DNA of 64,000 nt from a virus: the UHGV virus genome UHGV-1558314; one strand, written 5' to 3'. Below the pieces are notes generated by a model. That model did not search any database, was not told the DNA's origin, and saw only the letters and a program-made list of their open reading frames with translations. Position 1 is the stretch's first letter. Each line of letters starts with the position of its first letter. This document shows positions 9,666 to 64,000 of the stretch, piece after piece. The position numbers were made by a program, and so were the translations under genes.

Positions 9666-9688
9666 TGAAGTTTATTGTTATATAATGA

Positions 9689-27075: not shown

Positions 27076-27147
27076 TAGCCGAACTTGGAGTCGAACCAAG
27101 CTTTCGAGAATGAAAATCTCGCGTCCTAACCGATAGACGAAACGGCC
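27076..27147 (-). tRNA. tRNA-Glu (anticodon TTC)
   Basis: D-arm TTCGTCTATCGGTTAGGAC resembles bacterial tRNA-Glu; anticodon stem CGAGA/TCTCG with loop TTTTCAT; T-arm CTTGG-TTCGACT-CCAAG; two T-T mismatches at the base of the acceptor stem. Confidence 0.6.
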
Positions 27148-27330
27148 AAGAGCAGTTCAAGTCTGCAGCATTGAACTGCGGAAGCAATGCCTGTACGGGC
27201 AACCAATTGTGCAGATACAGCGACATTGCAAAATCACACCGAACCAAGTTTGTGGCTCTTCTGTCTCATAAAAACAGTAATCATTACACTTGGCACCAAT
27301 GATTCTGATGTAAAAATCGGTGTGTTATGC

Positions 27331-27413
27331 GGAAAGCGGAGGTGTCGATCCCCATACGCGAACGTACTCACGGTTTTCAAGACCGGATTTGCAGCCGTGC
27401 AAATTCACTTTCC
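27331..27413 (-). tRNA. tRNA-Ser-like (anticodon TGA), long variable arm, atypical D-arm and T-loop
   Basis: Acceptor GGAAAGT/GCTTTCC; anticodon arm CCGGTCTTGAAAACCG identical to E. coli tRNA-Ser(UGA); variable-arm hairpin GTACG-TTCG-CGTAT; T-loop ATCGACA. Confidence 0.45.
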
Positions 27414-27608
27414 ATAAAACATTGCATAAGCATTCTTATCTCTTGATGAGACCAAGTAGCTAATTTGGCAAGTTTGTTATATCTATCGTGACTGTTGCAG
27501 TTTATTTGTCACTCAATACACAAAATTTTCGAACATTCATTGACAGCACTGCAATATCGCTTTTTTAAGCTCAGCCATCAATGTATTTATGCAATGTATA
27601 ACAATTCG

Positions 27609-27690
27609 TAGCCAAACCGGGACTTGAACCCAGACTCCTAATGGAACAACATTTTGAGTGTTGCGTGTCTACCAATTCCACCATTTGGCC
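27609..27690 (-). tRNA. tRNA-Leu (anticodon CAA)
   Basis: Acceptor GGCCAAA/TTTGGCT, D-arm GTG-GAATTGGTAGA-CAC typical of tRNA-Leu, anticodon stem CAACA/TGTTG with loop CTCAAAA, long variable arm, T-loop TTCAAGT. Confidence 0.8.
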
Positions 27691-27794
27691 ATTTGCAAAT
27701 GCAAGCTGTTTCATAACTGTTTGCATTTGCTGTCGTAAATTTGTATTGTTTAGCCTCTAAAACATGATTCAACTAATCAAAAACCAGAGAATTG

Positions 27795-27867
27795 TCGAGA
27801 ATGTGCGATTTGAACGCCAATTATACGTCCCAAACGTATCGTGTTACCGGATTACACTACATTCTCG
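27795..27867 (-). tRNA. tRNA-Pro (anticodon TGG)
   Basis: Perfect anticodon stem ATACG/CGTAT with loop TTTGGGA; D-loop AATCCGGTAA; T-loop TTCAAAT; ends uncertain by 1 nt. Confidence 0.65.
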
Positions 27868-27874
27868 TTAATTG

Positions 27875-27946
27875 TTGAACCGTCTGGACTCGAACCAGAA
27901 ATGGCTGAACCAAAATCAGCTGTGTTACCGATTACACCACGATTCA
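27875..27946 (-). tRNA. tRNA-Gln (anticodon TTG)
   Basis: Acceptor TGAATCG/CGGTTCA (one G-T), D-arm GTGT-AATCGGTA-ACAC, anticodon stem GCTGA/TCAGC with loop TTTTGGT, T-arm TCTGG-TTCGAGT-CCAGA. Confidence 0.75.
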
Positions 27947-39507: not shown

Positions 39508-39570
39508 ATATCAACTATTTTGATTGTCAATCAATTGATTTGTTTGTTATATGTATGCAACAATGCAAAA

Positions 39571-45334: not shown

Positions 45335-45943
45335 TTAGCCTGCAAACTCATTGATTTTTAGGTCATTTGTCGTAACTGCAAAGCAATCAATGTGCAGCCA
45401 TGTGACGTCTTTTTCTATACGACAACGATGCGGCAATTCATCTGCATGTTCTTTAATGAGCTTTCGCATTTCTGCAGCAGTCATATCTGCAGACTGACAA
45501 TCAATTGCTGCACCATTACAATGTGCACTCAAATAAAGCTTGTTTGCAAGTGTCTTGTCTTTTGGGATTTGACAGATATTGCATCGTAAGCCACGTTGAC
45601 TCATTGTGCCGCCTTTAGCCCAATTATTGACACATAACGGCACTTTCAGCACAAATTTGCGTAATGCAAGCAGCAAGTCAAGCAGTTCTCTGTCAAGAAA
45701 CTGCCAAGAATTATCGCCAAACTTGTCATAGCAATGTTTGCATACAAGTTCTTTTATGCTGAAATATTGCTTAAGCTCTGCAATGACAGAGTCTCTTGAA
45801 GCACTTGCAATATCTGCAATGTTAGCTATGCTGTTGTTGCTGTTGTTCATGTTGTCTATCAAGTTCTTTGCATTTGCACTCATTTCGTTCACCCATGACT
45901 TTTGTAATGCCCGCAGTTGCAAACATGCCTGCGACTGCGCCAA
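45335..45943 (-). CDS. endolysin, peptidase M15 family (L-alanyl-D-glutamate peptidase-like)
   Basis: Zn-binding signature SAHCNGAAID (S-x-H-x-x-G-x-A-x-D) and downstream WLHID; start uncertain, probably an internal Met. Confidence 0.65.
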   Translation of the reverse strand: MAQSQACLQLRALQKSWVNEMSANAKNLIDNMNNSNNSIANIADIASASRDSVIAELKQYFSIKELVCKHCYDKFGDNSWQFLDRELLDLLLALRKFVLKVPLCVNNWAKGGTMSQRGLRCNICQIPKDKTLANKLYLSAHCNGAAIDCQSADMTAAEMRKLIKEHADELPHRCRIEKDVTWLHIDCFAVTTNDLKINEFAG

Positions 45944-46133
45944 TTATGCCTGCAACTGCGCCAAGTTGCTCAGTTGTTTTGCCAGTTGCTACGACTTCCC
46001 ATATGATAGCAAAACAAACAACGAGCAATATAAAGATGCCTATAAAAGTCACAGCTACAACAAAAAATGATTTGACTGACACACCAGTGTCATTCGTCAC
46101 TAAGTTGCGCATTGTAAATTTGTTGTTATTCAT
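45822..46133 (-). CDS. holin-like small membrane protein
   Basis: Two hydrophobic helices (FFVVAVTFIGIFILLVVCFAII; LGAVAGIIGAVAGMFATAGI), charged Q-rich C-terminus, immediately upstream of and overlapping the endolysin. Confidence 0.45.
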   Translation of the reverse strand: MNNNKFTMRNLVTNDTGVSVKSFFVVAVTFIGIFILLVVCFAIIWEVVATGKTTEQLGAVAGIIGAVAGMFATAGITKVMGERNECKCKELDRQHEQQQQQHS

Positions 46134-46293: not shown

Positions 46294-47949
46294 TTATGCA
46301 AGCAATGTTTGCAGCATGTAGCAGCCTTTTGCATATGCGACAATTGCTTTTGCAGGATTGTTCTTGATGTATGCAGGCAACTTGAGCCAAATCAGTGCTA
46401 CAAGAACTTTCTGTCGCAGCGTTAAATCAAGTTCATCAATGTTGTAGCCAATGACTTTTGCTCTGACATCGCCATCAACATAATCGAATTGCTGATATGC
46501 TGACTGATTGAATGCATCATAGCCAGACAAGCCATATGCAAACTTTGCAATGTCATAATCGATGTCACCAGTCATCTTGACGTCACCAAAGTAGCCTCTT
46601 GGGTCAATGAACATGCATTTTGATGAATCTGCACTGAACATTGTATTTGACGTATTCGGGTCACCATGAATGAATGACCAATTTTCGCATGCATAGTCAA
46701 TTGAATCTTCTTGTGACAAGAAGAATCTTAACTTGCTCATCAGTTCATCGAATGGCATCAATGCAATACCATTGAATGATTTGATGCCTGCTACAAGTGA
46801 CTTGACTTCAGCATATCTTGCAATAGTAGTCTCAATGTACTCTTTGCGCATTGCGTCAATCATTTGCTGTCTGCTAACTGGCCAAATCTCGTCATTGTCA
46901 AGATTACTTGCATGCAATTCATTGATTGACTGTTTGAATGTTGTCATGCAGCCACGAGCAATTGCAGCATATCTACGCTCAATATCAACTTTGTTGAGGA
47001 ACTGATGTACAGTCACTCCGTTAATTTTCGACATTTTGATGAAGTCTTCACCAGTTTCAAATATCGATGGAATGACTGTCGATTCTGCATTCATAGCATG
47101 ACGATACCATTCTTGTTCTTTCTGAATGAGTGCCAAACCACGAGCATTTGTAGCAGATTTCGTAACAATATCGCCATCAATGCTAATGCTATTGAAATAC
47201 CGCACTTCATTATCACGTGCAGCCTTGACTGCTTCACTGACAAATGCTCCGCGTTCGCCATATGAATGACAGCCAGCAATTTCATATCTGTCTACAAATG
47301 TAACGTTGGTCATTAAATCAGCAAAATCAGCATTGTTATCATTATGCTGCATATCAATGACATTGTTATGAAACGCTGCAGGTACATAATATGCGCCAAC
47401 AATGCCACTATGATATGTAGACTCATACAAATGGTCGAGCACATATGCTTCTGCATCTGCATAAGACCCTACTTTGTAGAATGCATCAGTAGGAATGAGA
47501 TGCAGTCTGCAATCAATGTCATTTGACGTGCAACAAGTTATGCAGCCATTTTTGAATTCTGCAAACGGCAATTCAATATCGCCAAGCCACACATCAGACC
47601 AATGATAGAATACATTGCAATCACCAATGTTGTTAGCAACAAACATTGCTACATCTGCGCATGCTTTTGCTGAGCCATCAGCTTTGTCATGCACAATAGT
47701 TGATAACTTGATATCTGGTGCAAATGCTGCAGCATGTTCATGAATCATTGCTACATGAGTGTCATTTGCACATGCAACAATGACTTCATCAAACTGTCGA
47801 GCATAGGATGTCAAAATCTTTGCAAGCACTGTTTGTTTGCCTGCATTTACAAGAGTTTTAGGGATGTAATTGTTGCCGGTCATTGTTGACATGCGAGTGC
47901 CCAACCCACATGCAATGATTGCTAACACATTTGGATATTGATGAGACAT
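46294..47949 (-). CDS. bifunctional sugar-phosphate nucleotidyltransferase / APH-choline-kinase-fold kinase
   Basis: N-terminal AIIACGLGTRM...IPKTL (G-x-G-T-R nucleotidyltransferase signature); C-terminal FIHGDPNTSN and FIDPRGY (kinase H-x-D...N and D-x-x-G-type motifs). Confidence 0.6.
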   Translation of the reverse strand: MSHQYPNVLAIIACGLGTRMSTMTGNNYIPKTLVNAGKQTVLAKILTSYARQFDEVIVACANDTHVAMIHEHAAAFAPDIKLSTIVHDKADGSAKACADVAMFVANNIGDCNVFYHWSDVWLGDIELPFAEFKNGCITCCTSNDIDCRLHLIPTDAFYKVGSYADAEAYVLDHLYESTYHSGIVGAYYVPAAFHNNVIDMQHNDNNADFADLMTNVTFVDRYEIAGCHSYGERGAFVSEAVKAARDNEVRYFNSISIDGDIVTKSATNARGLALIQKEQEWYRHAMNAESTVIPSIFETGEDFIKMSKINGVTVHQFLNKVDIERRYAAIARGCMTTFKQSINELHASNLDNDEIWPVSRQQMIDAMRKEYIETTIARYAEVKSLVAGIKSFNGIALMPFDELMSKLRFFLSQEDSIDYACENWSFIHGDPNTSNTMFSADSSKCMFIDPRGYFGDVKMTGDIDYDIAKFAYGLSGYDAFNQSAYQQFDYVDGDVRAKVIGYNIDELDLTLRQKVLVALIWLKLPAYIKNNPAKAIVAYAKGCYMLQTLLA

Positions 47950-47990
47950 TGTGTAGTATTGTTTATATGAATATTGTACAATATGCATTG

Positions 47991-48248
47991 CTATTTTGCA
48001 AGATGACAATGCTTACGCCATACTGCAATTTCAACATCTGTAGCAAAATCAAAGTGCAAGCCATGCAATTGTTTCATGTCATATTGACGTCTTGCAATAT
48101 ACTTATTGCCAACTCGCTCAACAACAGAACCAATTTCTACTACATTTTTAGAATGTCGTGGCTCATGTAATGGCACTCTGAATATGTATCTGCCATCTAA
48201 TGTTGACATTATGTCACCATTGTCAATTATGCCTGTTTGCCTGCTCAT
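47991..48248 (-). CDS. hypothetical protein
   Basis: 85-aa ORF. Confidence 0.3.
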   Translation of the reverse strand: MSRQTGIIDNGDIMSTLDGRYIFRVPLHEPRHSKNVVEIGSVVERVGNKYIARRQYDMKQLHGLHFDFATDVEIAVWRKHCHLAK

Positions 48249-48263
48249 TGTTAAAGCATCAAG

Positions 48264-48938
48264 TTATTTTTGAATGTCTACAAGTTCTGCTGCAATTCTA
48301 TCATATGCTAGCATGTGCTTAATTGCGTCATCAAGCAGCTTGTTAAATTCAAGATACTGCTGCAGCACTTTGTCATTCTGCAATGACTGCTCAAGCGCAG
48401 CATAATCACCTGCAAACGGGCGATTCATTGACAGGCCAAAGTTCTTCGCACATTTAGCATAAAATGCATTGTACTCTGCAGCATCAATTGGTGTCGCGTC
48501 ATGAGCTTTAAGCGCACTTTCACTGAGCAACGGGATGGTTTGCTTTCTGCAACGAGTAAACTCGTCTTTGTCAACATACAACACAGAACAACGAACGACA
48601 TTGTCTTCTGCATTCATACCACCTGTCAACAAATCCATTTCCCAATCGAAGCAAATGTTGTAGATGTACAGCATCACAGTTCGATGCTTGTTATCAACAA
48701 ACTTCCAATATCGAGACTTTTTGCAGATAGCTTTGATATGCTGCAAGTCATGCATAAACTTATCATGCGATATCGCATCAAAGCGAGGCAATGATTTGTT
48801 GTCAATGAATGTGTTTGCTGCATCTGCACAACGTTTGAATTCTGCTTGATGCATATTCAGCTCTTCTATGCGCTTTGCTACAAGCGCTTCATATTCTGCT
48901 TTTGCAAGAGCAAGTCTTGCTTCATACAAACTTTGCAT
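48264..48938 (-). CDS. hypothetical protein
   Basis: 224-aa ORF. Confidence 0.45.
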   Translation of the reverse strand: MQSLYEARLALAKAEYEALVAKRIEELNMHQAEFKRCADAANTFIDNKSLPRFDAISHDKFMHDLQHIKAICKKSRYWKFVDNKHRTVMLYIYNICFDWEMDLLTGGMNAEDNVVRCSVLYVDKDEFTRCRKQTIPLLSESALKAHDATPIDAAEYNAFYAKCAKNFGLSMNRPFAGDYAALEQSLQNDKVLQQYLEFNKLLDDAIKHMLAYDRIAAELVDIQK

Positions 48939-48963
48939 ATTTGTGTATGTTTATGAGTTTCTG

Positions 48964-49420
48964 TTAAAATTTGCCATCTGCTACTTGAAAACATTGATAG
49001 CCAAGCTCTCGCCATTTAGCGACCATGGAATCGCGGTCTTCAAGCACAAATGCAATTTGTTGCAGTTCGTCTTCAGACAATGTTTCTACAAGCAATTCAG
49101 GTTTGACAAGCGTATCATGACGTTTATCACCATCTTTTCGCATAAGAATTTGCGGATTGACGATTCTGCCATCTGTATGCTGTGCAAGCCAAACTTCTGT
49201 CATCTGTCTGCAGCTTTCACGACGACCTGTGCAGAATATGATTCTGTAGCCAACTTGCTGCAAATCGCAAAGCAAGTCAAGCACAGTCATAATAGGCTTG
49301 TCTTCATAACAGTGTGCATAAAATGCATCCCCAATCTTTGTTTGATTGTTGAAGATATTTTAGACGGTCGCCAACTTTTGAAATTGTTCCGTCAATGTCG
49401 CATATGATGATATTTGCCAT
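48964..49420 (-). pseudogene. HAD-superfamily phosphatase interrupted by a +1 frameshift
   Basis: ATG at 49420 opens MANIIICDIDGTISKVGDRLKYLQQSNKDW (HAD motif I) and stops after 38 codons; the rest (DAFYAHCYEDKPI...IIFCTGRRE...) continues in the +1 frame; removing one base from the cccc run at 49329..49332 fuses both parts. Confidence 0.5.
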
Positions 49421-49444
49421 GATATGTATGCTTATGAAAGGAAG

Positions 49445-49470
49445 AGCTCAATTGAGCTCTTCCTGATAGT
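49445..49470 (-). terminator. perfect palindromic hairpin
   Basis: aggaagagctcaa / ttgagctcttcct downstream of the 49495..50367 gene. Confidence 0.5.
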
Positions 49471-49494
49471 CAACTTGATAAACCTCTACGAAAA

Positions 49495-50367
49495 TCAAGC
49501 CTGACTACTTTTGTTGATTACGAGATACTTGTATCGTTCTTTGATTGTGATGTTCTTTGATTTTGCTGCCTCGAGTTCTTTACGTTCCTTGGAGGAATAG
49601 TTGAACTTGATGTAGTCGGAGAACAATTCGGGCTTATCTGCTACTTCATTGTTCTTGACTTCTTTTACAAGAGTTTGCTGAAACTCATTGATTGTAGTGA
49701 AACCAAGGAATGACTGGAACTTGTTAAGCGGAAACAACTTATCTGTGTTGTCCTCGAATGTCGGGAATTCGTCGGAATACGTAATTTCGATTTGGTCTAC
49801 GAAATATCTAAGTTTTTCCCAAGGTTCCTTGCCAATGAGGAGAATGTTCTGATGGTCAAGTTTTTCCTCGAACATTTCCAGGAGGCATTCGTATGATTTT
49901 ACGAGACGAACTCCAGGATATGTAATTGATGCAATTGAACGAGGTTTGTGAGTTGTCTTGACTTCTTTATTGTACGTTTCCTCATCAATGCAATAGATGT
50001 ATCGCTTGACCTTGTCGTATTCTTTCGGAAGATAGTTGTTGTCAAGGAATTGCTTGTCAACTACAATGAAACTGAAAGGATAGAGTTCATTGAATCGTTG
50101 ACGAAGCTGTTCTGTTGCAAGGAAGAAATGCGAGCCATCTTTTGCTGCAAATTCCATATTTGAATTGCATCCTGCATATGCAATGTATCTGTTTCGCTTC
50201 CATTTAAGGAATCGACTTACCAGATTCTTTTCGAAGATATCCTTGTATTTGAAGTTAGTGTCCCAGTACTCCTTAACAATTCCATCTTGCATTTTTCTTG
50301 ACAATTTTGAATTGTCTACCGGCCTATCAGTAAAAACTGAAGGTTTGTTTGCATTGTATAATCCCAT
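49495..50367 (-). CDS. hypothetical protein with atypical nucleotide composition
   Basis: Start taken at MGLYNANK (ATG at 50367) just downstream of a promoter-like motif; sequence visibly richer in gg/tcgg/ggaa than neighbouring genes. Confidence 0.5.
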   Translation of the reverse strand: MGLYNANKPSVFTDRPVDNSKLSRKMQDGIVKEYWDTNFKYKDIFEKNLVSRFLKWKRNRYIAYAGCNSNMEFAAKDGSHFFLATEQLRQRFNELYPFSFIVVDKQFLDNNYLPKEYDKVKRYIYCIDEETYNKEVKTTHKPRSIASITYPGVRLVKSYECLLEMFEEKLDHQNILLIGKEPWEKLRYFVDQIEITYSDEFPTFEDNTDKLFPLNKFQSFLGFTTINEFQQTLVKEVKNNEVADKPELFSDYIKFNYSSKERKELEAAKSKNITIKERYKYLVINKSSQA

Positions 50368-50407
50368 TGTAGTAGAGGTTTTTGTTAAATTTATTATATA
50401 TGTATAT

Positions 50408-50434
50408 ATTACAACGACAGTGCAAAATTTGCAC
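50408..50434 (-). promoter_or_regulatory. recurrent bipartite promoter-like motif
   Basis: attacaacgacagtgcaaaatttgcac (contains the palindrome cagtgcaaaatttgcactg). Confidence 0.5.
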
Positions 50435-50461
50435 TGTCGTAGCATAAAAGTTTACACATTT

Positions 50462-50812
50462 TTACAAATATGAGTACAGTTTGTTCATAACTCGTTCAAT
50501 TGCAAATTCAACACCATATTGCAACAACTGTTCAGTGCTAAATGTCTTTGCTGCATGTGCATGCGCAACAATATGCTTTGTCTGTGCATATAATATCCAA
50601 GTATCAGTTGGCCTGTCATAAGTTACTGTCAGTCTACATGTTTGCAACACAAACTCTTGACTAAAGTATTCTCTTCGCCAAAACTCTGGTTCTGCAATAT
50701 GCAAATCAAGCCAAGCAAACTCAAACAGAATTTGTTTAAGTTGACGTTGATGCTTACGTTCAGCACGATATGAGTTGCTGAATAGCCATTTAATGATGTT
50801 CATCATTTGCAA
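50462..50812 (-). CDS. hypothetical protein
   Basis: 116-aa ORF. Confidence 0.4.
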   Translation of the reverse strand: MQMMNIIKWLFSNSYRAERKHQRQLKQILFEFAWLDLHIAEPEFWRREYFSQEFVLQTCRLTVTYDRPTDTWILYAQTKHIVAHAHAAKTFSTEQLLQYGVEFAIERVMNKLYSYL

Positions 50813-51519
50813 TCATTATGCTGAGTATGAATTGCGTTGCCCTGTGAATCCAAGCGAATCGCAGTTTGCATTGCGACTTCAGATTGTGTTTGTTCTGCTT
50901 GACGAGCTCTTTGAAGTCCACCTCCAGGGTGACATGTGTAAAATCTATCAAAGTCAGTGCCAAGCTGTTCAGCAACAGACAACATGATGTTATCACCAAT
51001 GAGCTGAGATGCTAGCAGAGAATTCGTCGGAATTCGTGGATTGCGTGAGTCCTCGTCAATTGCTGGCAATGATACAAGCAAGTCTGCCCAAGCATTCATA
51101 TCAGTGACCTTGCCACCAGCAAAGTTAATGCCGATGATTTGGCAATTCGGTGCAAGCAATTCACGATGTTCACGAAGATATGTCATTGCAGTTGCAAGTT
51201 CAGATGTGTTGCCTGTTTTGCTGAATGCTACAATAACATCATTGTTTCGAATCATACCAAAGTCACCATGCATTGCATGTACTGCATCAAAGAACGCAGC
51301 ATCAAGTGAAATTGAATAGCATGTTGCAGCAAGTTTTTCACAGCAATGCACATTTTTGCCAATGCCAGTGAACAATACTTTGCCATCAGACTTCAATGCA
51401 TTTGCAATAATGTCTGCTGCAATGCCAAGAACATCATATTGCGCATCTGAAATGTTGTTGTGCCATGCTACAAGCGACTCGACTGATGCAGCAATGCCTT
51501 TGTGTACAAGTGTTTTCAT
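50803..51519 (-). CDS. SIS-domain sugar-phosphate isomerase (arabinose-5-phosphate isomerase-like)
   Basis: DGKVLFTGIGKNVHCCEKLAAT and VIVAFSKTGNTSEL match the KdsD/KpsF-type SIS signature; no CBS domains. Confidence 0.7.
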   Translation of the reverse strand: MKTLVHKGIAASVESLVAWHNNISDAQYDVLGIAADIIANALKSDGKVLFTGIGKNVHCCEKLAATCYSISLDAAFFDAVHAMHGDFGMIRNNDVIVAFSKTGNTSELATAMTYLREHRELLAPNCQIIGINFAGGKVTDMNAWADLLVSLPAIDEDSRNPRIPTNSLLASQLIGDNIMLSVAEQLGTDFDRFYTCHPGGGLQRARQAEQTQSEVAMQTAIRLDSQGNAIHTQHNDCK

Positions 51520-51537: not shown

Positions 51538-52221
51538 TCAAAGAAACTTGAGTTTTGACAGCATTTCAGTGTCTTGTTCTGTGTTGATGCCAAGCTCTTG
51601 CATGACATCAAGCAACGCAGACCATAATTGCTCATATGATTGCCCACCCCCATTCATGACAACTGCATCAACGAACAACTCGTCGATGTGCTGCTCACTT
51701 GAATGATTGATGTTTTGCATGACATCATCATTAACAATCTTTATGAGTTTGAAGCCTCTTGAGCGCAATGCGGTCGCTTCATTTGGATATCGACAGTCAC
51801 CAACACAAATGAGAGCTTCATTATGACAGTTGTCAAGTCGATACAACAAACTATTGACAAAGAAGTCTTCACCATACAGTTTCTTGAGCACATCTGAAAC
51901 ATCAAGATGCACATTGCGAATCGATGAACCTGCAAACTCTACAAAGTGTTTTTGTTTGAATGCATTGTTATGCAAGTCTTGCAAATTGTAGCCCAGTGTA
52001 CTTGCAATAAATGCTTTCAGTGGCTTTGCAAAGCACTCATATGCAAGATTGCAGCCACATGACCAGTATGGATTTGCTTCAATTTGCTGCAAAGTTGATG
52101 TGTAAATGCTATCAATTACAGTGAACTTGCATTTAGTCATGACTCGAATCATCGCCCAAGCCAAATCTTTGCCTACGCCTGCATGACCAACAAGCGCAAT
52201 TTTTGTTATGTCATCATTCAT
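51538..52221 (-). CDS. deoxynucleoside monophosphate kinase (T4 gene 1-like)
   Basis: P-loop ALVGHAGVGKD (G-x-x-G-K-D variant typical of phage dNMP kinases). Confidence 0.55.
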   Translation of the reverse strand: MNDDITKIALVGHAGVGKDLAWAMIRVMTKCKFTVIDSIYTSTLQQIEANPYWSCGCNLAYECFAKPLKAFIASTLGYNLQDLHNNAFKQKHFVEFAGSSIRNVHLDVSDVLKKLYGEDFFVNSLLYRLDNCHNEALICVGDCRYPNEATALRSRGFKLIKIVNDDVMQNINHSSEQHIDELFVDAVVMNGGGQSYEQLWSALLDVMQELGINTEQDTEMLSKLKFL

Positions 52222-52696
52222 TGCACCACTGTTTAAGAGTCACAAAATTGTTGAAGTCTGCATAAAAGTCATCGCCACCGTTAAGCATTGCGACATTCTC
52301 AAGTTCATTGAGAATGATTTGCTTATCAATGACTATTGCAAGAGCGTCAAAGTCTTCTTTTGATTGCAAATCAAGTAGCACAGGATGACCTTTGAGTCTT
52401 GTAGTTAATGTTGTTGGCAGTCTATGCACAGACTTCTTTTTCTTTGACTGCGTAGGATGTTTTGAGCGCTTTCTTGTAGCAGTCAGCTGAATATCATAGT
52501 CAATTTCAAGCAAACCTGCATCTTGCATTACAAAGTTGAGATTGACATACACAGGATGCTTTTGCTGAATGTCTATGAATTCTTGTAATTTGTCGTTTAT
52601 CATTTGAAATGCATTTGTATATGATAATTGTACCACGTATGCATCAACTTTGCACACAAAACAAGACCAACTCAATTGAGCTGGTCTTGCGGTCAT
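52214..52696 (-). CDS. hypothetical protein
   Basis: 160-aa ORF. Confidence 0.4.
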   Translation of the reverse strand: MTARPAQLSWSCFVCKVDAYVVQLSYTNAFQMINDKLQEFIDIQQKHPVYVNLNFVMQDAGLLEIDYDIQLTATRKRSKHPTQSKKKKSVHRLPTTLTTRLKGHPVLLDLQSKEDFDALAIVIDKQIILNELENVAMLNGGDDFYADFNNFVTLKQWCNE

Positions 52697-52707: not shown

Positions 52708-53265
52708 TTAAAATTTGGATAGACTCGTAGTTGAATCAATGCGCAAAGAATCTGCTATAGGTGCGCAATCATCAATTGGGCGACTTGCAGGCTTAACTTT
52801 GAGCATGTACATTCTGCAGTTGCCAATATCTATAAGGGAACCAGAACGTGTCATATAATCACAACCCAAAATGCCAACAACTTCATGACCAAGTGCTTTG
52901 CTAAGCTGAACTAAAATAGGCGAAATGTCGTCAATAAACATGTCCAGCTGTACAGAACCATTTGCGATAGTAATGTCTGCATCTATTGCATGAGATACTT
53001 GAAGAGCTCCTGTGACATATGATAGTCGCTTAACTGAACGCTCTTTGCCAACCATGTCATGAGTTGCAACAAATGTGCTGTCAATCAATGACAATGATGC
53101 GCCAGTGTCAAGCAAAAGCCATGTGTCGACACCATTGACATTTGCATGCACAAATGGCAGGCTCTTCAAAACAATCGGTGACTGTGATTGCTGCAATGCT
53201 TCATTACACATTGTCAGCGTCATAATCGCAAGTAGCGATATAAGAAACAATTTGAATGTTTTCAT
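52708..53265 (-). CDS. secreted/lipoprotein retropepsin-like aspartic protease
   Basis: Signal peptide with LTMC lipobox-like cleavage site; active-site signature LLLDTGAS (hydrophobic-D-T-G-A-S). Confidence 0.6.
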   Translation of the reverse strand: MKTFKLFLISLLAIMTLTMCNEALQQSQSPIVLKSLPFVHANVNGVDTWLLLDTGASLSLIDSTFVATHDMVGKERSVKRLSYVTGALQVSHAIDADITIANGSVQLDMFIDDISPILVQLSKALGHEVVGILGCDYMTRSGSLIDIGNCRMYMLKVKPASRPIDDCAPIADSLRIDSTTSLSKF

Positions 53266-53269: not shown

Positions 53270-55222
53270 CTACTCTGCTTTTGTTGCTTGCATCAGTTCA
53301 GCAAAGCTTACAGTGTAAGCATCTTCACCAACAGTCACATATGCTGCATCAACATTGGAGTCATTGCCTGTGTATGTAACCAAGGTGCCTGCAGGAATTT
53401 CTACACCGTCAATTGTTCGCATCGAATTGACAAGCTTATATGTCTTGTTGTCTTCGAAGTTCTCATTGACATATGCGGCAGCAATCATTGTTGAACGCTT
53501 ACGAGATGCAGACTCATTGACAAAGCTTGCGCCAACAAGTTCTGACAGCTTCTTCTTTGTTGCTGCAGAACACTTGTCATATGCAATGTCAATTGCAAGG
53601 TCTACATCGCCAAGTTCCTTTGCAATGAGTTCATCAATCTGAGACAGCTTCTTGTCATCTTTGACAGCGACAAAATTCATTGCAAACTTGCGAGCGTTGT
53701 CTGACAATGATTCATCAATGTTCCACTGTTTCATCAATGTCTGCTTCAGTACCTTGTCAAGTTCCGACCAGTCCTTATCTGCAAGAGTAGTTGCATCAAA
53801 GTCTTCATTGCTGAACTGCTTCAGCACTTTGACTTTGTCATCATGTGACAATGCTGACCACTTGTTTGCAGCGTCTTCAGCAGATTCAAGCAGAGGCTTG
53901 ATTGCATCTTTGAGTTCTTGCGGCCAAGTTTCAGGCGCTTTGAGCAGCATCTCAGATGAGTTGTACTTAAGCATGTCGGTCATGATTGCAAGCTTAACAT
54001 TGTTAGCTTTCTCCTCAGGTGACAGAGCTTTGAACTTTTCAGCCCAGTCTTCAGATTCAGTCACGATTGATACTGGCTTTGCAAAACCAGCGACAAAGAC
54101 AAGCTTATACATGATGTTCGTCATGAATGAACAAACTGCATCAATATCAGACTGAGTTGCTGCAGATTGAGCATCACGAATGTTAAGCAATGCTTGACGA
54201 AGAGACATAATGCCTACAACAGGGTCAGACCATGTCAATACAACTGAACTATCGATTGTGATGCCCTTGTCAAATCGCATATTTTCTGCAATGCGGTCAG
54301 CAAGTTCAGGCAGTTCAGTGTAGTACTGCTCAAGTGCTGCATGTGTAGCAGGAATAGAAACTTTTGCAGCATCAAATGGGTTATTGATGTGCATAACATG
54401 TGCAGTTTGAATTGACTGCATCAGCATCGACACTACTGCAGATTCTATTGCAACATCATCTGCAGCAGCTTCATCAAGATTTGCAATTTTTAGCAATGCC
54501 TTTTTGTCTGCATCTGACAATCGCAGCCAAATGTATTCCCATTGACTGTTTGCATCATAGCCACGGTCAGTAGCAAACTTGGTGAGTTCTGCAGATTTCT
54601 TTGCTGCGTCATCGTCATCAAGCCAATCCAAGAATGCTTTCAGTTTGTCGTCAAATGCTTCATTGACAAATGACGCCATCGCATTTTGCAACAAATATTG
54701 ATGGTCTCGTACTGGTGACTCAACAATTTCAAAGCCTTCAAGAGACTTTGGCGAGTCAGTTGCTGAACCAGCTTCAAGACACTTCTTTGATGCATTGTCA
54801 ATGACAAACCACATCTTTTGTGCTTTGAGTGCAATGTAAGTCTTGTCTTTTGATTGCTGAACAGTCATGTTGTCAAGAGCCAATGCACTGATTGGCAAAT
54901 TCTTGACTGCTGACTTGTCAAGTGCTTCATTGACTGCTACATTGTCATCACTCATTAACTGAGTATTTGCAGCAAATGTTGCAGAATCAATGCTAAGCTC
55001 TTTGCCATCGGGCATAGCGAACTTAACTGCATCTGCAACATCAAGCACTTGCACCATGGTGCCTGCTTCGACTTTGTCGTCACCAACAGCGAACTCAGTT
55101 ACAACCTGATATGCTTTGTTAGCTTCAACAGTCTCAACAGACTCCATAATGAACTTTGCTGTGCTGCAAGAGATTTTGTGCTTTTTCATGTTCATGTATG
55201 AATTTGAGTGTTTGTTGTTCAT
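53270..55222 (-). CDS. hypothetical acidic protein (possible prohead scaffold or other virion protein)
   Basis: 650-aa D/E/K/A-rich ORF located in the capsid gene neighbourhood. Confidence 0.45.
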   Translation of the reverse strand: MNNKHSNSYMNMKKHKISCSTAKFIMESVETVEANKAYQVVTEFAVGDDKVEAGTMVQVLDVADAVKFAMPDGKELSIDSATFAANTQLMSDDNVAVNEALDKSAVKNLPISALALDNMTVQQSKDKTYIALKAQKMWFVIDNASKKCLEAGSATDSPKSLEGFEIVESPVRDHQYLLQNAMASFVNEAFDDKLKAFLDWLDDDDAAKKSAELTKFATDRGYDANSQWEYIWLRLSDADKKALLKIANLDEAAADDVAIESAVVSMLMQSIQTAHVMHINNPFDAAKVSIPATHAALEQYYTELPELADRIAENMRFDKGITIDSSVVLTWSDPVVGIMSLRQALLNIRDAQSAATQSDIDAVCSFMTNIMYKLVFVAGFAKPVSIVTESEDWAEKFKALSPEEKANNVKLAIMTDMLKYNSSEMLLKAPETWPQELKDAIKPLLESAEDAANKWSALSHDDKVKVLKQFSNEDFDATTLADKDWSELDKVLKQTLMKQWNIDESLSDNARKFAMNFVAVKDDKKLSQIDELIAKELGDVDLAIDIAYDKCSAATKKKLSELVGASFVNESASRKRSTMIAAAYVNENFEDNKTYKLVNSMRTIDGVEIPAGTLVTYTGNDSNVDAAYVTVGEDAYTVSFAELMQATKAE

Positions 55223-55277
55223 ATGATATGATATATATCAAGTGCAGCAATTGAACAGATTGCAAAAACAATGCTCA

Positions 55278-55307
55278 GACTGTAAAGTCTGAGCATTGAA
55301 CGACTAA
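55278..55307 (-). terminator. hairpin terminator
   Basis: caatgctcagact / gtctgagcattg with T-run on the minus strand. Confidence 0.5.
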
Positions 55308-55474: not shown

Positions 55475-56494
55475 CTATTGCTTATGCCAGCCATATGATG
55501 CCTGACCAGCATCATACACTTCTACAAAACCATGGTCGTACATAAAATCTTCATTACGAGTGCCCTTGCCCCCATTAGTACCAAGAATACGGTCTGCACC
55601 ATGCATAAGCAGCATATTATTTGTGATATGTTGCTTTGTCAGCATATTGAACCAATGTTTGCTATATGACAAGCCAAGACCATCAAAGCCCAGCTTTGTG
55701 TACACGCCACCATCAAACTTGCTCAAATCACAATACGACAACACAGATTCAGGGTCATATGTCTTGATAAAGTGCTTGAATATGCGTTCGGCGCCACCTA
55801 CGACTTTTGTTGCTGCACAAAGACGCAGTAGTTCATACTGATATCGCTTATTGTATCGTGGACGACCAAATGTCATAAGCTGATGTATGACATAGCCGCC
55901 AAGCAATTCAAGTGGATGGCCTTCAATCAACGCAAGATTGATAAAATTGCCTGAGCACTTGCCTTGCAAATGATGTTCAATCAAAAATTGATTTGCAGTA
56001 TACTTGTCAATTTCAACAACTTTAAGCTTGCGAGCATATACAATCTTTGATTTGTCTACGATTTGATGCTTGATGTGATTGATAACTTTCTTGGCGTCAT
56101 CCCAATCCCACACATGAATGCAATGAAAGCCTGCAGCTTTTGCAATGTCTGTTTTCTTTGCATGAATATCACAAGGCAAATGCGAATCTTTTGCAGCATG
56201 CATAAATAGATGCTCAAATGAATGCGTGCTATTATGTGAAAATGTGGGATTGATGTTGATGACGATGTTGTCATGTCTAAAATCGAAGACTTCATCACCA
56301 ATAACAAAGTTGCGCTCAAAATCTATACCGACATGTTTGAGTAATACTTGATGCCACACATCTTTATAGGCTGATTCAAGATTGCTTAGCTCATCACAGT
56401 TTGCAATATTTTTGTAACGTTGAATAGCAGCATCAAAGTCAAGATTGACTTCAGCGTAGTCTGCATTTTTATCGTAGTGAAATTTTGAGCTCAT
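55475..56494 (-). CDS. paralog family member C (conserved domain without the repeat array, extra inserted region)
   Basis: NINPTFSHNST, CIHVWDWDD, FVEVYDAGQ; FLIEHHLQG region between them; start taken at MSSKFHYD (ATG at 56494). Confidence 0.55.
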   Translation of the reverse strand: MSSKFHYDKNADYAEVNLDFDAAIQRYKNIANCDELSNLESAYKDVWHQVLLKHVGIDFERNFVIGDEVFDFRHDNIVININPTFSHNSTHSFEHLFMHAAKDSHLPCDIHAKKTDIAKAAGFHCIHVWDWDDAKKVINHIKHQIVDKSKIVYARKLKVVEIDKYTANQFLIEHHLQGKCSGNFINLALIEGHPLELLGGYVIHQLMTFGRPRYNKRYQYELLRLCAATKVVGGAERIFKHFIKTYDPESVLSYCDLSKFDGGVYTKLGFDGLGLSYSKHWFNMLTKQHITNNMLLMHGADRILGTNGGKGTRNEDFMYDHGFVEVYDAGQASYGWHKQ

Positions 56495-56598
56495 GTGTAT
56501 AATTTGTATGAGATTATTGTACAACATGCAAATGCATGTTGCATTTGATGCAAAGTACTGCGTACACAACATAAAGTACAAGTTTGCTTTTGACAGAC

Positions 56599-57706: not shown

Positions 57707-57738
57707 GAACCGCTTGCAATCTAATTGCAAGCGGTTCA
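57707..57738 (-). terminator. rho-independent terminator
   Basis: gaaccgcttgcaat / attgcaagcggttc followed by T6 on the minus strand. Confidence 0.6.
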
Positions 57739-57966: not shown

Positions 57967-59682
57967 TCAAATCCAGCCGTAGTCGCTGTGGATAGCGAAG
58001 GTGAGGTAAGCCAACTCGGGATACATACCCGTCTCCGCGAGAGCGTAATCCGACTCAATCAGCAACTTTGGCGCTGCTGTTCCTTCGGCTGTTAATTCCA
58101 CACTTGATGCAAGGTCATATGGCATGAATACACATCCCTGGTTGACATTCTCTACGTCAACACCGTCAGCAGTCTTGTTCGTACGAAGAACGAGAACAGT
58201 GTTGTCGTTCAGCGGCTGCTTAGGATTGCAATAGATTTTAATGCCAGCAAGGTCACCTGCGTAATACAGGTTTTTGTTGTCCTGTACCAGCGTATTGTCA
58301 AGAGCTGCAACAAAGTTTTTCTGAGCCTTAATTGCAACCAAGGCAATCGTATTGACCACAGCAGCATCACCAGCACCGAAACGCGACAGGTTGCCAATGA
58401 TTGCCGAAGCAGCCAGGATACGCGTTGCGATACGAGCCTGACGGGTAATCTGGTTCTCAGCCGAGCTGTTCGATTCAGCGTTCGGAACCATGCCGAATTC
58501 AGCCGTACGGTCTACACCCATCTTGTCGACAAATGCAGGAGCTTGGAATTCCGAGAATGCCTTGGCAGTCGAACCAGCGTAGCCAATGTACAAGTTCAGG
58601 TTGTAGCCCTGAGCAGCCAACAGCTGAGCATGTGTCGTAACACCAAGTGCACGCATGCGCTTCAGACCATTGTCATTGATTGACTGCGTGATTTCATTCT
58701 GCATTGCATTCTTGATGATTGCAACTGCATCCAAACCGCGAGCACGGAGGTCCTTAACCTGGCGACGAGTCAGAGCGCCCCAAGTCTGGTACGTCTTAAC
58801 TTCGATAGCCTTTGAGAAGGTGCGGAGCTCCAGCATGTTCGGGTTGCCAGCCTCAGCCTCAGAACGAGACATTGGGTTGCCGTCAAGGTCATCCATTGCA
58901 GCGAAGCCGTGGATGTGTTCGTCACCAGCCGAAACCAGGTCGAACATAACCTCAGTCATACCAGTCAGCAAGTCAGTTACAGCACCTGCAGCGTCAACCG
59001 AGTAGATTTTCGATGCAGCCATTGCAACATCAGCCAACGACTTGTCAGGAGCAACAGTCATTGCGCCACCTGCGCCTACAGTGTACACGCCCTCATTGCG
59101 AACTACGAGGTAGCCTGCAACACGCGATACCTGTACAAACGTTACTTTGGCAGCAAGCTCACCAGCAGCTGAACCGCCGATGTACAGAACTTGACCCTTC
59201 TTGAGGCCACGAACCATTGTCTGCGAAGCAACATTGTACAGTTCCTTCCACTTGATGAGGAAGTAGCGAGGACCCTTGGCAACATTCAGCTTGCCGCCAC
59301 CATACACGTAGTCTACATAGTCCAGCTGAACCAGCGGGCTGTAAACAGGAATGGTCGGGAGCAGGTCGAACAGAATCGTGTTGGCTGCGATGTTCATGTT
59401 CAGAGCCAGAACATTGGCAGCTACATCGATTGAACCACGCTTACGCGACGGGTCATGGAACTGTGCTTGCGTGCCTGGGTCAGCAGGGAAAGCGACCGGA
59501 CCTACGCCATTGAGATTCTGCGAATACGTCGACTCAAACGACTCGTTCATATACTGAACGTTCTGAGCGATTGATGCGAGCAGATACTTCTTAGCGGGCG
59601 AGAGCTTGGAGTCAAACGACTCATCAAGAACAGGGCCCCACTTTTTCAGCAATGCATCAATCTGTGTACGTTTTGCGTTCAT
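57967..59682 (-). CDS. major capsid protein (T4 gp23-like)
   Basis: Several segments resemble T4 gp23 as recalled from memory (DALLKKWGPVLDES vs ELLNKWKPLLEGEG; ...IPVYSPLVQLDYVDYVYG; FSKAIEVKTYQ...AVAIIKNAMQNEI); nucleotide composition visibly more GC-rich than neighbours, consistent with a highly expressed gene. Confidence 0.8.
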   Translation of the reverse strand: MNAKRTQIDALLKKWGPVLDESFDSKLSPAKKYLLASIAQNVQYMNESFESTYSQNLNGVGPVAFPADPGTQAQFHDPSRKRGSIDVAANVLALNMNIAANTILFDLLPTIPVYSPLVQLDYVDYVYGGGKLNVAKGPRYFLIKWKELYNVASQTMVRGLKKGQVLYIGGSAAGELAAKVTFVQVSRVAGYLVVRNEGVYTVGAGGAMTVAPDKSLADVAMAASKIYSVDAAGAVTDLLTGMTEVMFDLVSAGDEHIHGFAAMDDLDGNPMSRSEAEAGNPNMLELRTFSKAIEVKTYQTWGALTRRQVKDLRARGLDAVAIIKNAMQNEITQSINDNGLKRMRALGVTTHAQLLAAQGYNLNLYIGYAGSTAKAFSEFQAPAFVDKMGVDRTAEFGMVPNAESNSSAENQITRQARIATRILAASAIIGNLSRFGAGDAAVVNTIALVAIKAQKNFVAALDNTLVQDNKNLYYAGDLAGIKIYCNPKQPLNDNTVLVLRTNKTADGVDVENVNQGCVFMPYDLASSVELTAEGTAAPKLLIESDYALAETGMYPELAYLTFAIHSDYGWI

Positions 59683-61060: not shown

Positions 61061-61127
61061 ATGTGTGTGTAGTGCTTGTTAATCATGTTATATATCATAT
61101 GACAAATTACTACTTTGCATATAACAA

Positions 61128-61806: not shown

Positions 61807-62556
61807 TCATCGTACAGTGAATGACTTATCATCATCTTCTGTAGTAGTCGGGTCATCAATTACATCGTGGCCAATGCCTGACTCTGGTTCTGGTTCTGGT
61901 TCCGGTTCCGGTTCCGGTTCTGGTTCTGGTTCCGGTTCTGGTTCCGGTTCTGGTTCCGGTTCTGGTTCCGGTTCTGGTTCCGGTTCTGGTTCAGGTTCTG
62001 GTTCCGGTTCCGGTTCTGGTTCTGGTTCCGGTTCTGGTTCCGGCTTGGGCTCTGGCTTGGGCTCTGGCTTGGGCTTCGATGAATAATCAAACATCTTATG
62101 AATCCATTTGCACCACCATTTGCGACATACATGTGTGCCATCATGATAATACGCTTGCAGCTCCATTGGAATTGCATGATATGCTTTGTCATGTGACATA
62201 CCTTTGAATACTCGCAAGTACACATAGCACAAGCAATATGCAATGTAGTACATAAGCGGTGATGCAAGCAGCCACCACCAGCTAAGCACATTGCATGCTG
62301 CAAGCACAATAAGTACAAGCAACGTCGCAAGTGTTACGAAGATGAATTGCTTTGCATGCACAGCTTCATGCTTCAATGTCTCAGAATATCTACTAAGTGT
62401 GTCATCATATGACTTATCACTTCTTATGAAGCACATTGCACACAACGACATTGCATAATAATGTGAAAATGGAATGTATGGCTGGTCGATGACAAGCATT
62501 GGTCCAGCAAACCACAGTCGCCACTGAGATTTCTTTGGCAGTGTTGCAGTTTTCAT
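61807..62556 (-). CDS. membrane protein with HExxH metallopeptidase-like motif and C-terminal (EP)n repeat
   Basis: HEAVHAKQ motif, hydrophobic segments, and about 60 residues of KPEPEPEP... encoded by a hexanucleotide repeat. Confidence 0.5.
61883..62085. repeat. hexanucleotide simple-sequence repeat (ggttc[ct])n inside a CDS
   Basis: About 200 bp of ggttctggttccggttcc... encoding (EP)n on the minus strand; the plus-strand GS-repeat ORF is its frame artefact. Confidence 0.85.
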
Positions 62557-62619: not shown

Positions 62620-64000
62620 CTACTCTGCAGATGCGCCTTGCAGTGACAATGTTGTACGATGTACACCAATTCGAATGCCTTGAGCATTGATAATTTCAGT
62701 GTCAAGTACAATGAATCCGCGAGCAATCGTTTCATCATCATTGTTGCTGCTATCACAGACATTCGTGTACGAAACTGCGCCACCGGCTGCAACGATGCCA
62801 TCCATGAAATTGTCTGCTTTAGTCTTAACCTGCAAACGAACATTTGCAGTGTTTCGCTTGTACTGGGCAGACTTCAAGTATGGCTCGATGTTGTCAGCGA
62901 CGTAGATGAGCAACTCGAGATTTTCGATGTAGCTGAATGCGCTGGTGTAAGCTACTTGTGCAGAACGAGATGTCAGCATTGTGATGACGCCTTGGTCTGA
63001 ACGAGCAAGCATATTCCAACCTGCAGGTTCAAGGTCATCCATATCAGACCCTTCACCTTGTGAGACAATCATGTCAATGTCGGTTACGCCAACACCAGAC
63101 AGTGGCCACTCATCACCAGCAACGACGTCAAAGACATGCTTGCCTGCTTCTATATGCTTTCTCATGAAGACATTCGACAAGATACCTGTTGCAGGAATCG
63201 TCATATCATCAATGCCATCATTGTAGCGAACATTGGCTACATATGTGATGAACGGTGCGCCATCAGTTTGACCTGCGAAGCTGAACAACTTGCTGTATGG
63301 TTTATCGGTGTTACCACCTGCAGCACAGTACTTAGACTCAATTGGGTCACCTGCATTGTCCTTGAAGTACGGGTCAGTTGAGCGGAACAAGTCATACTTG
63401 GTTGGCAGAGCAGAGAATGCGATTGCACGTTTTGAATCATTGCAAATCTTTGCAAACTCGTACTTTTGATTTGCTGCAATGTATGTCTTGAATGGGTCAA
63501 CTACGTAACGCCATTGACATTGATTGTGGTCCATCAAGCTACGATAAACGCCGCCTGAAATGAGAGCTTGCAGTACTTCTGTCTGACGTGCAGATGTGCC
63601 ATCAACAAATTGAGTTGCACGAAGAGCTACGCCATGCAGATATGCGCCCTTGAAGAACTTAACTTGGTCAACAAGCTTCGTCAATGACCAAACAGACGCC
63701 TGCGAGGCGTACTTCATCATTGAGCCATCTGCAAGTTCAAATTCGCCTTCAGCACCCGCAGCTTTGTATGCCAATGCACCAGTGAATTGATATTCAATCA
63801 ACACTTTGTTTTCTGCAAATGCATCGTAGACATTCTTCTTCTCAAGTGGCGACAAATCAGCTTCAGTGATTGTGATTGGCATGCCACCATACTTGAGCGG
63901 CTTATCCAACGGCAGACCATTAGAATCATATTCAACAAGGTCACCACCATATGAAATTGTCTCACCTGCAGCTCTTGCTTTACGAGCTTTCGTTGATGAA
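62620..64000 (-). CDS. hypothetical structural protein, 5'-partial at window edge
   Basis: ORF-track start at 63909 is a TTG codon and the reading frame stays open upstream to the window end. Confidence 0.5.
   Translation of the reverse strand, partial: SSTKARKARAAGETISYGGDLVEYDSNGLPLDKPLKYGGMPITITEADLSPLEKKNVYDAFAENKVLIEYQFTGALAYKAAGAEGEFELADGSMMKYASQASVWSLTKLVDQVKFFKGAYLHGVALRATQFVDGTSARQTEVLQALISGGVYRSLMDHNQCQWRYVVDPFKTYIAANQKYEFAKICNDSKRAIAFSALPTKYDLFRSTDPYFKDNAGDPIESKYCAAGGNTDKPYSKLFSFAGQTDGAPFITYVANVRYNDGIDDMTIPATGILSNVFMRKHIEAGKHVFDVVAGDEWPLSGVGVTDIDMIVSQGEGSDMDDLEPAGWNMLARSDQGVITMLTSRSAQVAYTSAFSYIENLELLIYVADNIEPYLKSAQYKRNTANVRLQVKTKADNFMDGIVAAGGAVSYTNVCDSSNNDDETIARGFIVLDTEIINAQGIRIGVHRTTLSLQGASAE

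Follow-up and report, generated by a model that had tools for sequence, protein, structure and literature searches.

Can a phage gene that carries the active-site loop of retroviral proteases encode a working, exported enzyme, and what would such an enzyme do in the infected cell? The question was raised by an open reading frame (ORF) of 185 amino acids (aa) on the minus strand of UHGV virus genome UHGV-1558314, of which a stretch of 64,000 nucleotides (64 kb; hereafter the window) was analysed. The analysis pointed to an exported, membrane-tethered, single-domain retropepsin of a ~175-kb myovirus with a probable host among Bacteroidota; the enzyme would act as a dimer and cleave one or more envelope or exported proteins of the host. 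That bacterial retropepsin-like proteases play a part in the cell envelope has become clear only lately. If a host envelope protein is cleaved, the locus would be a simple case in which a phage uses proteolysis to reshape the periplasm or outer membrane, and the protease could point to the phage receptor or to poorly understood lysis mechanisms of Bacteroidota. If the protease only trims a phage protein or is dispensable, it would be an ordinary accessory gene.

Gene, catalytic motifs and fold of the protease

The ORF listing showed an ATG-initiated ORF of 185 aa at exactly 52708..53265 on the minus strand, with a translation starting MKTFKLFLISLLAIMTLTMC. The following features were assigned to it.

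52708..53265, minus strand: coding sequence of the retropepsin-like protein, 185 aa, from the ORF listing, Pfam matches and the ratio of non-synonymous to synonymous substitution rates (dN/dS); stop codon 52708-52710
53095..53118, minus strand: active-site loop LLLDTGAS, aa 50-57; codon of the catalytic Asp53 at 53107-53109
52855..52875, minus strand: second retropepsin motif GILGCDY, aa 131-137, from the alignment with SASPase and conservation in relatives
52804..53187, minus strand: retropepsin-like catalytic domain, aa 27-154
52711..52791, minus strand: C-terminal tail, aa 159-185, predicted to be disordered from alignments and a predicted local distance difference test score (pLDDT) of <50

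Six-frame translation of the whole window showed the tetrapeptide DTGA only once, in the LLLDTGAS loop of this ORF. A lone tetrapeptide is weak evidence by itself, and the surrounding sequence was therefore checked for family behaviour. Pfam family PF13650 (Asp_protease_2) was matched at 29.4 bits, above its curated threshold of 24.3, with positions 1-89 of the 90 in the profile covered, and PF00077 (RVP) at 21.4 bits (curated cut-off 20.7). The only Pfam families matched were Asp_protease_2, RVP, gag-asp_proteas and RVP_2, and no family for the protease was found in PHROGs. The GILGCDY motif aligned with IIGTDVL of SASPase in the family profile and is the counterpart of the SASPase I-I-G-x-D; it also corresponds to the G86-R87-N88 segment of HIV-1 protease.

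Close homologues in a collection of 5.8 billion proteins numbered 4 (63-96% identity), all of them metagenomic. An exhaustive search of representatives returned 249 relatives at E<=1e-3, which were divided into single-domain proteins of 145-190 aa, aligning from the N-terminal signal region, and tandem two-domain proteins of 300-350 aa. Among 30 aligned single-domain relatives, D53 and G134 were invariant, and P37, T54, G55, G131, I132 and D146 were nearly invariant. The pattern D-[TS]-G-[AST] was kept in 74 of the 76 single-domain representatives of the family. Within the clade that shares GILGCDY, the LLLDTGAS loop was invariant; the C-terminal tail (aa 159-185) was restricted to this phage clade in the alignments and showed a 5-aa indel between strains.

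Among solved structures, the family-alignment profile found 204 distinct retropepsin sequences (E<=0.01), with the D-T/S-G and I-x-G-x-D motifs in register; these matches included SASPase/ASPRV1 (1.6e-9), Ddi1, the EIAV, FIV and HIV proteases, and Rickettsia APRc (1.3e-4). An AlphaFold2 model built from a 22-sequence alignment showed a core at aa 27-154 with pLDDT mostly 80-95, a helix at aa 2-23, and a disordered segment at aa 159-185. Foldseek comparison of the model with the PDB produced 214 hits at E<=1e-3, and among the matches listed the top ones were all retropepsin-type proteases. Judged by profile, both motifs and the modelled beta-barrel fold, the protein is a clan AA retropepsin-like aspartic peptidase. 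An earlier sequence-only reading of this DNA had claimed an ORF at these coordinates with the LLLDTGAS loop and a retropepsin-type (clan AA) active site; the ORF and the loop were confirmed, and the active site was borne out by the Pfam scores, the second motif and the fold match. Neither the lack of a half-barrel fold nor an isolated DTGA motif, both named there as grounds against the claim, was found, since the fold and the second motif support a retropepsin.

Between-strain comparisons of the protease gene gave a dN/dS of 0.03-0.09, which indicates strong purifying selection and a maintained, functional coding sequence. The conserved catalytic residues make an active enzyme likely, as against a pseudo-protease. 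Lys2, Phe4, Lys5, Leu8 and Cys20 were invariant among homologues down to 63% identity. Between-strain substitutions in the signal-peptide codons were synonymous or conservative, and the first ATG is on these grounds the true translation start, although one gene caller took Met15.

A search of the PDB with the single sequence gave non-significant matches (E 0.08-0.3) to the 2Fe-2S region of NuoG/NDUFS1, and these were rejected as chance. The resemblance (GNCRMYMLKV...C and GNCRMCLVEV...C, respectively) has a Tyr in the protease at the place of one ligand Cys, and Cys167 was not conserved in the homologues P0003 and P0004. Also rejected was P0009 (4931 aa, "21 stretches"), a VCBS/cadherin-like repeat adhesin with 3-5 bits per stretch, the summed score being a repeat artefact. 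A pattern scan of genome contigs, restricted to the clade-specific VVGILGCDY, gave only two weak hits in metagenome-assembled genomes and carries no information on cellular distribution.

Predicted export and lipidation

The N-terminus of the protease contained one further feature.

53206..53265, minus strand: signal sequence, aa 1-19 (MKTFKLFLISLLAIMTLTM), followed by Cys20 (codon 53206-53208), the presumed lipidation site

This segment consisted of a positive n-region (MKTFK) and a 14-residue hydrophobic core with a Kyte-Doolittle peak of 2.65, followed by Cys20, with which the LTMC segment (53206-53217) ends. Cys20 was conserved without exception in the clade (5/5 and 7/7 members), even where identity fell to 30%, and canonical lipoboxes were found at the same column in clade members P0004 (LYAC), P0007 (IIAC) and P0008 (VVAC). 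A hydrophobic N-terminus was found in 65 of the 76 single-domain family representatives and a canonical lipobox in 22, and the N-terminus was hydrophobic without the Cys in 28. The protease was the sole lipoprotein-type ORF in the window.

What weighs against lipidation is that LTMC, with Met at -1, fails the lipobox pattern [LVI][ASTVI][GAS]-C (PROSITE PS51257-type), and that a second phage clade within the family (P0156-P0161/P0028) has the equivalent Cys in only some of its members, so that lipidation would not be universal among these phage proteins. Because Met at -1 breaks the canonical lipobox, lipidation on Cys20, and with it lipoprotein status, is graded as probable only. The proposal of a lipoprotein whose signal peptide ends at a Cys was thus upheld for the export signal and the invariant Cys20, and not for a canonical lipobox.

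The same enzyme may be no lipoprotein. Its N-terminal helix could persist as an uncleaved signal anchor, giving a type II inner-membrane protein whose domain is periplasmic, or signal peptidase I could remove it and release a soluble periplasmic protease. Besides the broken lipobox, the variable Cys and the 28 representatives without it, this view is favoured by the plain transmembrane (TM) helix of the Dulem virus 41 protein and by the secreted RloA enzymes, which are soluble and periplasmic (PMC12239564). However, Cys20 stayed invariant in 7/7 clade members amid varying residues, three canonical lipoboxes stood at the same column, and Met at -1 recurred in the L007 copy as well as in P0005 and P0006 (CMC, VMC), so that it is apparently tolerated. 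A non-lipoprotein form was therefore given a minor, though appreciable, share of the probability. Whether the protein is a lipoprotein, a signal anchor or a signal peptidase I substrate, the positive-inside rule and the family context (hydrophobic N-termini, lipoboxes) would place the protease domain outside the cytoplasm.

Export signals of Bacteroidota surface lipoproteins include K-(D/E)2, Q-A-(D/E)2, SDDDD and SDDFE (Lauber et al. 2016, PMC5080379), and single-acid motifs were weak export signals in reporter assays (PMC5080379). The mature N-terminus of the protease, C-N-E-A-L-Q-Q, has one acidic residue and showed no match to a surface-export signal. Because C-N-E-A-L does not match such a signal, the protease would, in a host from Bacteroidota, more probably face the periplasm than be displayed on the surface.

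Source phage, two-gene unit and proposed role

The phage to which the window belongs was characterised from the following features.

62620-63909: tail sheath
57967-59682: T4 Gp23-type major capsid protein
26760-27946: tRNA cluster, six tRNAs

The genes of the window lie almost all on the minus strand, and topoisomerase II subunits, ribonucleotide reductase, NAD-dependent ligase and deoxynucleoside monophosphate (dNMP) kinase are also encoded. Metagenomic contigs with lengths of 175,395 to 175,564 bp contained identical or near-identical copies of the locus, as did a 174,628-bp viral contig from IMG/VR. Because these copies sit on ~175-kb viral contigs, the source is, by sequence, a ~175-kb myovirus of the T4-capsid type. 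The structural and replication genes in the window and the copies on 175-kb viral contigs agree with the earlier claim that the protease is phage-encoded. DNA comparison with 50,697 GenBank phage records found no close relative of the source phage.

The nearest capsid proteins, at 33-37% identity, were those of large Flavobacteriia phages, with Chryseobacterium, Tenacibaculum and Flavobacterium as hosts; Sphingomonas phage PAU and, more distant, the Prevotella Lak phages were also among the capsid relatives. A Shine-Dalgarno-like motif at positions -20..-4 was found in 0 of the 44 window genes, with GGAG-type words being scarce on the coding strand generally (2.7% of random 17-nt windows). From the capsid relatives and the absence of Shine-Dalgarno motifs, the host is probably a member of Bacteroidota.

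The protease gene lies in a unit with one other gene and the following elements.

53270..55222, minus strand: gene of a 650-aa acidic, mostly helical DUF5856 protein, the upstream partner of the protease
52661..52690, minus strand: terminator-like hairpin (13-bp stem and T-run) at the downstream end of the unit, beginning 18 nt past the protease stop
55269..55298, minus strand: terminator-like hairpin (13-bp stem) 5' of the 650-aa gene, marking the start of the unit
55229..55236, minus strand: ATATATCA element, located 7 nt before the ATG of the 650-aa gene and a candidate promoter element of the phage

The stop codon of the 650-aa gene sits 4 nt before the protease ATG, and the two hairpins bracket exactly these two genes; the protease is, on this arrangement, predicted to be co-transcribed as the second gene after the DUF5856 gene. 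Both hairpins were found in locus L003. L007 contained a non-homologous 13-bp hairpin at the corresponding position after the protease gene; in this relative the capsid protein was 74% identical, the protease 33% and the neighbouring genes 30-36%. A homologue of the 650-aa protein was encoded directly upstream of the protease in L003, L007, L019 and L020, including short contigs with P0007 and P0008, whose proteases were ~32% identical to that of the window, and the contig with P0006 shared the genes downstream of the protease. On this conservation the whole GILGCDY clade (P0001-P0008) is assigned to phages, with the two-gene unit as a conserved feature of this phage group.

In the 650-aa partner, aa ~262-374 form a DUF5856 / PHROG 858 core, and a small, confident beta domain lies towards each end (aa ~31-90 and 590-650). 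Its W-x2-LS-x2-DK helical repeat blocks were gained or lost between strains, with lengths of 575-658 aa. The AlphaFold model of the partner was poor (pLDDT 48). It had 6 close homologues, and no relatives were found in GenBank phages or the PDB.

The motif ATATAWCA occurred in 17 copies in the window, against 6.4 +/- 2.4 expected, and 0/100 shuffles reached 17. Five minus-strand copies were located 7-40 nt upstream of gene starts, including those of the 650-aa gene and of the gene preceding the capsid gene, and the motif is a candidate phage promoter element. Examples of the copies are as follows.

9676-9683, minus strand: ATATAWCA copy
21598-21605, minus strand: ATATAWCA copy
39545-39552, minus strand: ATATAWCA copy
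55229-55236, minus strand: ATATAWCA copy
61086-61093, minus strand: ATATAWCA copy

The capsid-proximal region as a whole was split into short transcription units by strong terminator-like hairpins with 13-14-bp stems and a T-run, at 57707-57737, 55269-55298 and 52661-52690 (minus strand) in the window and at 2734-2759 and 6517-6546 in L007. Each hairpin was followed by "TTTTTGCAA..." and then by an AT-rich element resembling TA(T/C)AATTATCA(T)AT just before the next ATG, an arrangement suggestive of junctions at which a terminator meets a promoter and the 5' leader is very short. A called ORF of 160 aa at 52214-52696 (minus strand), with no family match, starts inside the downstream hairpin of the unit. 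As that hairpin lies in its first codons, its true start is probably Met32 (ATG near 52603, 129 aa), as called in L002.

Between the capsid-proximal genes and the DUF5856-protease unit sits an HNH/homing-endonuclease gene (55475-56581, minus strand; PHROG 3339, E 7e-42, and PHROG 559); the L007 interval contained an unrelated 287-aa ORF. A conserved block was found downstream of the protease unit (46294-51519, minus strand; 2904-8127 in L001), encoding a dNMP kinase, a SIS-domain protein (PHROG "arabinose 5-phosphate isomerase", E 2e-28) and a 571-aa NTP_transferase-domain protein, and in L001/L002 also a HAD/PNKP-like phosphatase. The block could be a sugar-nucleotide pathway for envelope modification of the 3-deoxy-D-manno-octulosonic acid (KDO) type or for DNA modification.

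As to function, the protease would be exported through Sec by its N-terminal signal sequence and would stay tethered to the membrane, most likely as a lipoprotein acylated on Cys20 and otherwise through a signal anchor that is not cleaved. Having no Bacteroidota surface-export signal, the protease would be expected to face the periplasm and not the cell surface. A single clan AA domain contributes one Asp, and two copies must dimerise; two copies of the protease would pair, with the two Asp53 forming the catalytic dyad. The tandem two-domain fusions in the family and the adjacent paralogues of one phage group (see below) fit this dimer logic. From its topology, the protease would cleave at least one host envelope or exported protein during infection, the plausible roles being superinfection exclusion by receptor cleavage, an outer-membrane-destabilising accessory function in lysis, and the processing of an exported phage protein. 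Apart from the lipobox and the variable Cys, this picture is weakened by the partner and by the host assignment. The 650-aa partner has no signal peptide and is therefore unlikely to meet the protease in the periplasm, and the host is inferred only from capsid relatives of 33-37% identity, which include a Sphingomonas phage, and from the missing Shine-Dalgarno motifs.

More specific roles were also weighed. The tethered protease may cut the phage receptor or another surface or periplasmic entry protein, by which the infected cell would be shielded from secondary infection and the progeny spared adsorption to debris. Phage lipoproteins such as T5 Llp are exclusion factors, and predicted export and tethering suit such a role. 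The protease evolves faster than the capsid gene (33% and 74% identity in L007, respectively), as accessory host-interaction genes often do; however, the neighbouring genes diverge equally, so that the rate is not specific to the protease. It also has a weak domain-level match to the candidate defence component PDC-M08B (PADLOC, E 1.2e-5), but this is shared-domain homology only, and without a surface-export signal access to surface-exposed receptor loops is disfavoured. Exclusion or receptor shaving was accordingly regarded as unlikely to be the specific role. A late lysis accessory, which would cut outer-membrane or peptidoglycan tethering proteins as a spanin substitute in a Bacteroidota host, agrees with the protease being the window's only lipoprotein-type ORF, with the ATATAWCA element that its operon shares with the gene preceding the capsid gene (hinting at co-regulation with structural genes), and with a weak holin-like 3-TM ORF (45822-46133) in the same conserved block. 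No adjoining endolysin or i-spanin and no recognisable lysis cassette were found in the 64 kb covered of ~175 kb, and this role was held to be quite improbable.

Least credit was given to an inactive retropepsin-fold binding protein (a pseudo-enzyme) or a cytoplasmic head-maturation protease, both of which were rejected as very improbable. The protease gene follows the capsid gene at a distance of ~4.7 kb, and the window yielded no recognisable canonical prohead protease, an absence that is weak evidence either way with 64 kb of ~175 kb covered. Yet the export signal is incompatible with action in cytoplasmic proheads, a terminator and the homing-endonuclease gene stand between the protease and the capsid gene, and no prohead-protease family was matched in Pfam or PHROGs. 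A pseudo-enzyme is opposed by the D-T-G-A-S and I-L-G-x-D motifs, which are strictly conserved under strong purifying selection. The preferred reading, held to be likely, is still an exported, tethered and presumably dimeric retropepsin that would act on the host envelope.

Among lysis-related observations, holin candidates were found on the minus strand at 45822-46133 (103 aa, 3 TM, weak Phage_holin_3_6 match, E 0.005) and at 24491-24757 (88 aa, 3 TM), and no endolysin was identified among the window ORFs scanned. An o-spanin assignment for the protease was rejected, as the mature protein (165 aa) contains a folded enzyme domain, TM segments are absent from both neighbours, and neither an i-spanin nor an endolysin is adjacent.

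Repeats were observed elsewhere in the window. An intergenic tandem array at 25496-25584, upstream of the ORF at 24754-25473, consisted of the 16-nt unit TATCAATTGCATTCTA, repeated 5.6 times with 100% identity between copies, nested in a larger 48-nt periodicity (25486-25608); it could be iteron-like or regulator-binding. Positions 6976-7070 contained 2.9 perfect copies of a 33-nt unit, whose minus-strand translation repeats FILFCILHQNN at the start of the called ORF 6576-7067; it is probably non-coding rather than protein sequence. The ORF at 61807-62556 (249 aa) contained a 6/12-nt tandem repeat of 13-26 copies at 61883-62075, acidic and of Glu-Pro type. The 249-aa protein also has hydrophobic segments, a Trypan_PARP match through the repeat only, and a weak PHROG "protease" match at aa 20-74.

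Similar genes in other phages and comparison with known enzymes

Retropepsin-like homologues were found in several further phage groups. The homologue on a 143-kb contig (L008/L009) carried the lipobox LYSC, of the textbook Bacteroidota type, together with the surface-export signal C-K-E-D (LYSC-KED); the lipobox was SVSC in the L010 homologue and LISC in that of a 676-kb contig (L011). A version without a signal sequence was found in a 735-kb megaphage. One phage group, which has T4 gp13-like, PolB, ClpB-like AAA+ and SNF2 genes, contained two adjacent, slightly overlapping retropepsin-like paralogues, and the post-helix Cys was present in some of its members and absent from others. The paralogues, which could possibly form a heterodimeric protease, were located as follows.

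L014, 7556-8041 and 8001-8510: adjacent paralogues, 161 aa and 161-169 aa
L016, 2667-3152 and 3136-3621: adjacent paralogues, 161 aa and 161-169 aa

Dulem virus 41 (XCD04982.1) has a TM-anchored version in its replication module, annotated as "retropepsin-like protein"; like the window protease it has a hydrophobic N-terminal helix, which is followed by LLDSGAH and GILGSEF. The best matches in BFVD (Foldseek E 8e-12 to 1e-8) were A0A8S5QUR9 ("retropepsin-like protein"), A0A7M1RY13 ("aspartyl protease") and A0A8S5S0H9, and the BFVD models of phage retropepsin-like proteins aligned with the window protease over essentially the full length, N-terminal helix included. The annotated proteins of uncultured phages (CrAss-like virus sp. 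ctDAq1, cr111_1, Myoviridae sp. ctNQV2 and Dulem virus 41) are of similar size (170-182 aa). They differ from the window protease in their 17-24% identity, their other lineages and neighbourhoods, and the lack of a 650-aa DUF5856 partner. CrAss-like phages infect Bacteroidota.

A tblastn search of GenBank phages with the window protease gave no match, the annotated retropepsin-like ORFs included, and the L009 homologue likewise gave no match in GenBank phages. Only 3 GenBank phage records matched the family, all of them uncultured or metagenome-derived genomes. The earlier remark that such proteases are unusual in phages therefore holds for cultured phages (no PHROG family, 3 uncultured records) and fails for metagenomic phages, in several lineages of which the gene recurs. 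No paper on phage-encoded retropepsin-like proteases was found in the literature searches made, in which they appeared only as automatic annotations. The protease family is thus known and similar phage genes are already annotated; what is new is a phage-specific clade with a fixed operon partner. Several unrelated phage lineages have gained similar protease genes independently. A tentative extension, which is doubtful as it stands, is that exported retropepsin-like proteases are a recurrent tool by which at least five mostly large phage lineages (the ~175-kb DUF5856-paired clade, the T4-gp13/PolB group, the 143-kb and 676-kb contigs, the crAss-like viruses, and Dulem virus 41) remodel the envelope proteome by site-specific cleavage, for instance by removing receptors to exclude superinfection or by destabilising the outer membrane at lysis. 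If true, these proteases would form a new class of phage-host interaction effector.

Compared with known enzymes, the protease resembles Pseudomonas RloA/RloA2 (PA0462; PDB 9g59) and Legionella Lpg0085 (2pma), which are likewise small, single-domain proteins with N-terminal signal peptides. RloA-type enzymes are C2 dimers with DTG-A at the interface and function in the cell envelope; those of Pseudomonas affect osmotic tolerance, biofilm formation and cell shape, and are soluble, periplasmic proteins filed as "zinc protease" in Pfam (PMC12239564). RloA differs in belonging to another Pfam family, in not being tethered through a Cys, and in being chromosomal, whereas the window protease is phage-borne. 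The partners in the rlo operon, RloB (a transglutaminase-like membrane protein) and RloC (ATP-grasp), are absent beside the window protease. Membership of the RimB/RloA sequence family and of the RloA system was rejected on the different Pfam family and operon partners.

APRc of Rickettsia conorii (RC1339; PDB 5c9b/5c9f) is, similarly, a membrane-associated bacterial retropepsin-like envelope protease. Several N-terminal TM helices anchor APRc, which also processes itself. APRc and the window protease share 14-15% identity; the latter has a single signal sequence with a Cys and is phage-encoded, whereas APRc comes from an obligate intracellular bacterium. APRc has been proposed to process surface proteins, according to work cited in PMC10414592.

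The RVP domain of eukaryotic Ddi1, eukaryotic SASPase/ASPRV1 and the HIV-1, EIAV, FIV and XMRV proteases share the D-T/S-G-A and I-x-G-x-D/N motifs with the window protease. Ddi1, SASPase and the retroviral proteases are obligate homodimers; they belong to the cytoplasm or the virion and lack signal peptides. The phage/bacterial family is further distinguished from them by an additional helix at aa 115-125, ahead of the ILG motif; this helix appears as a gap in the SASPase alignment.

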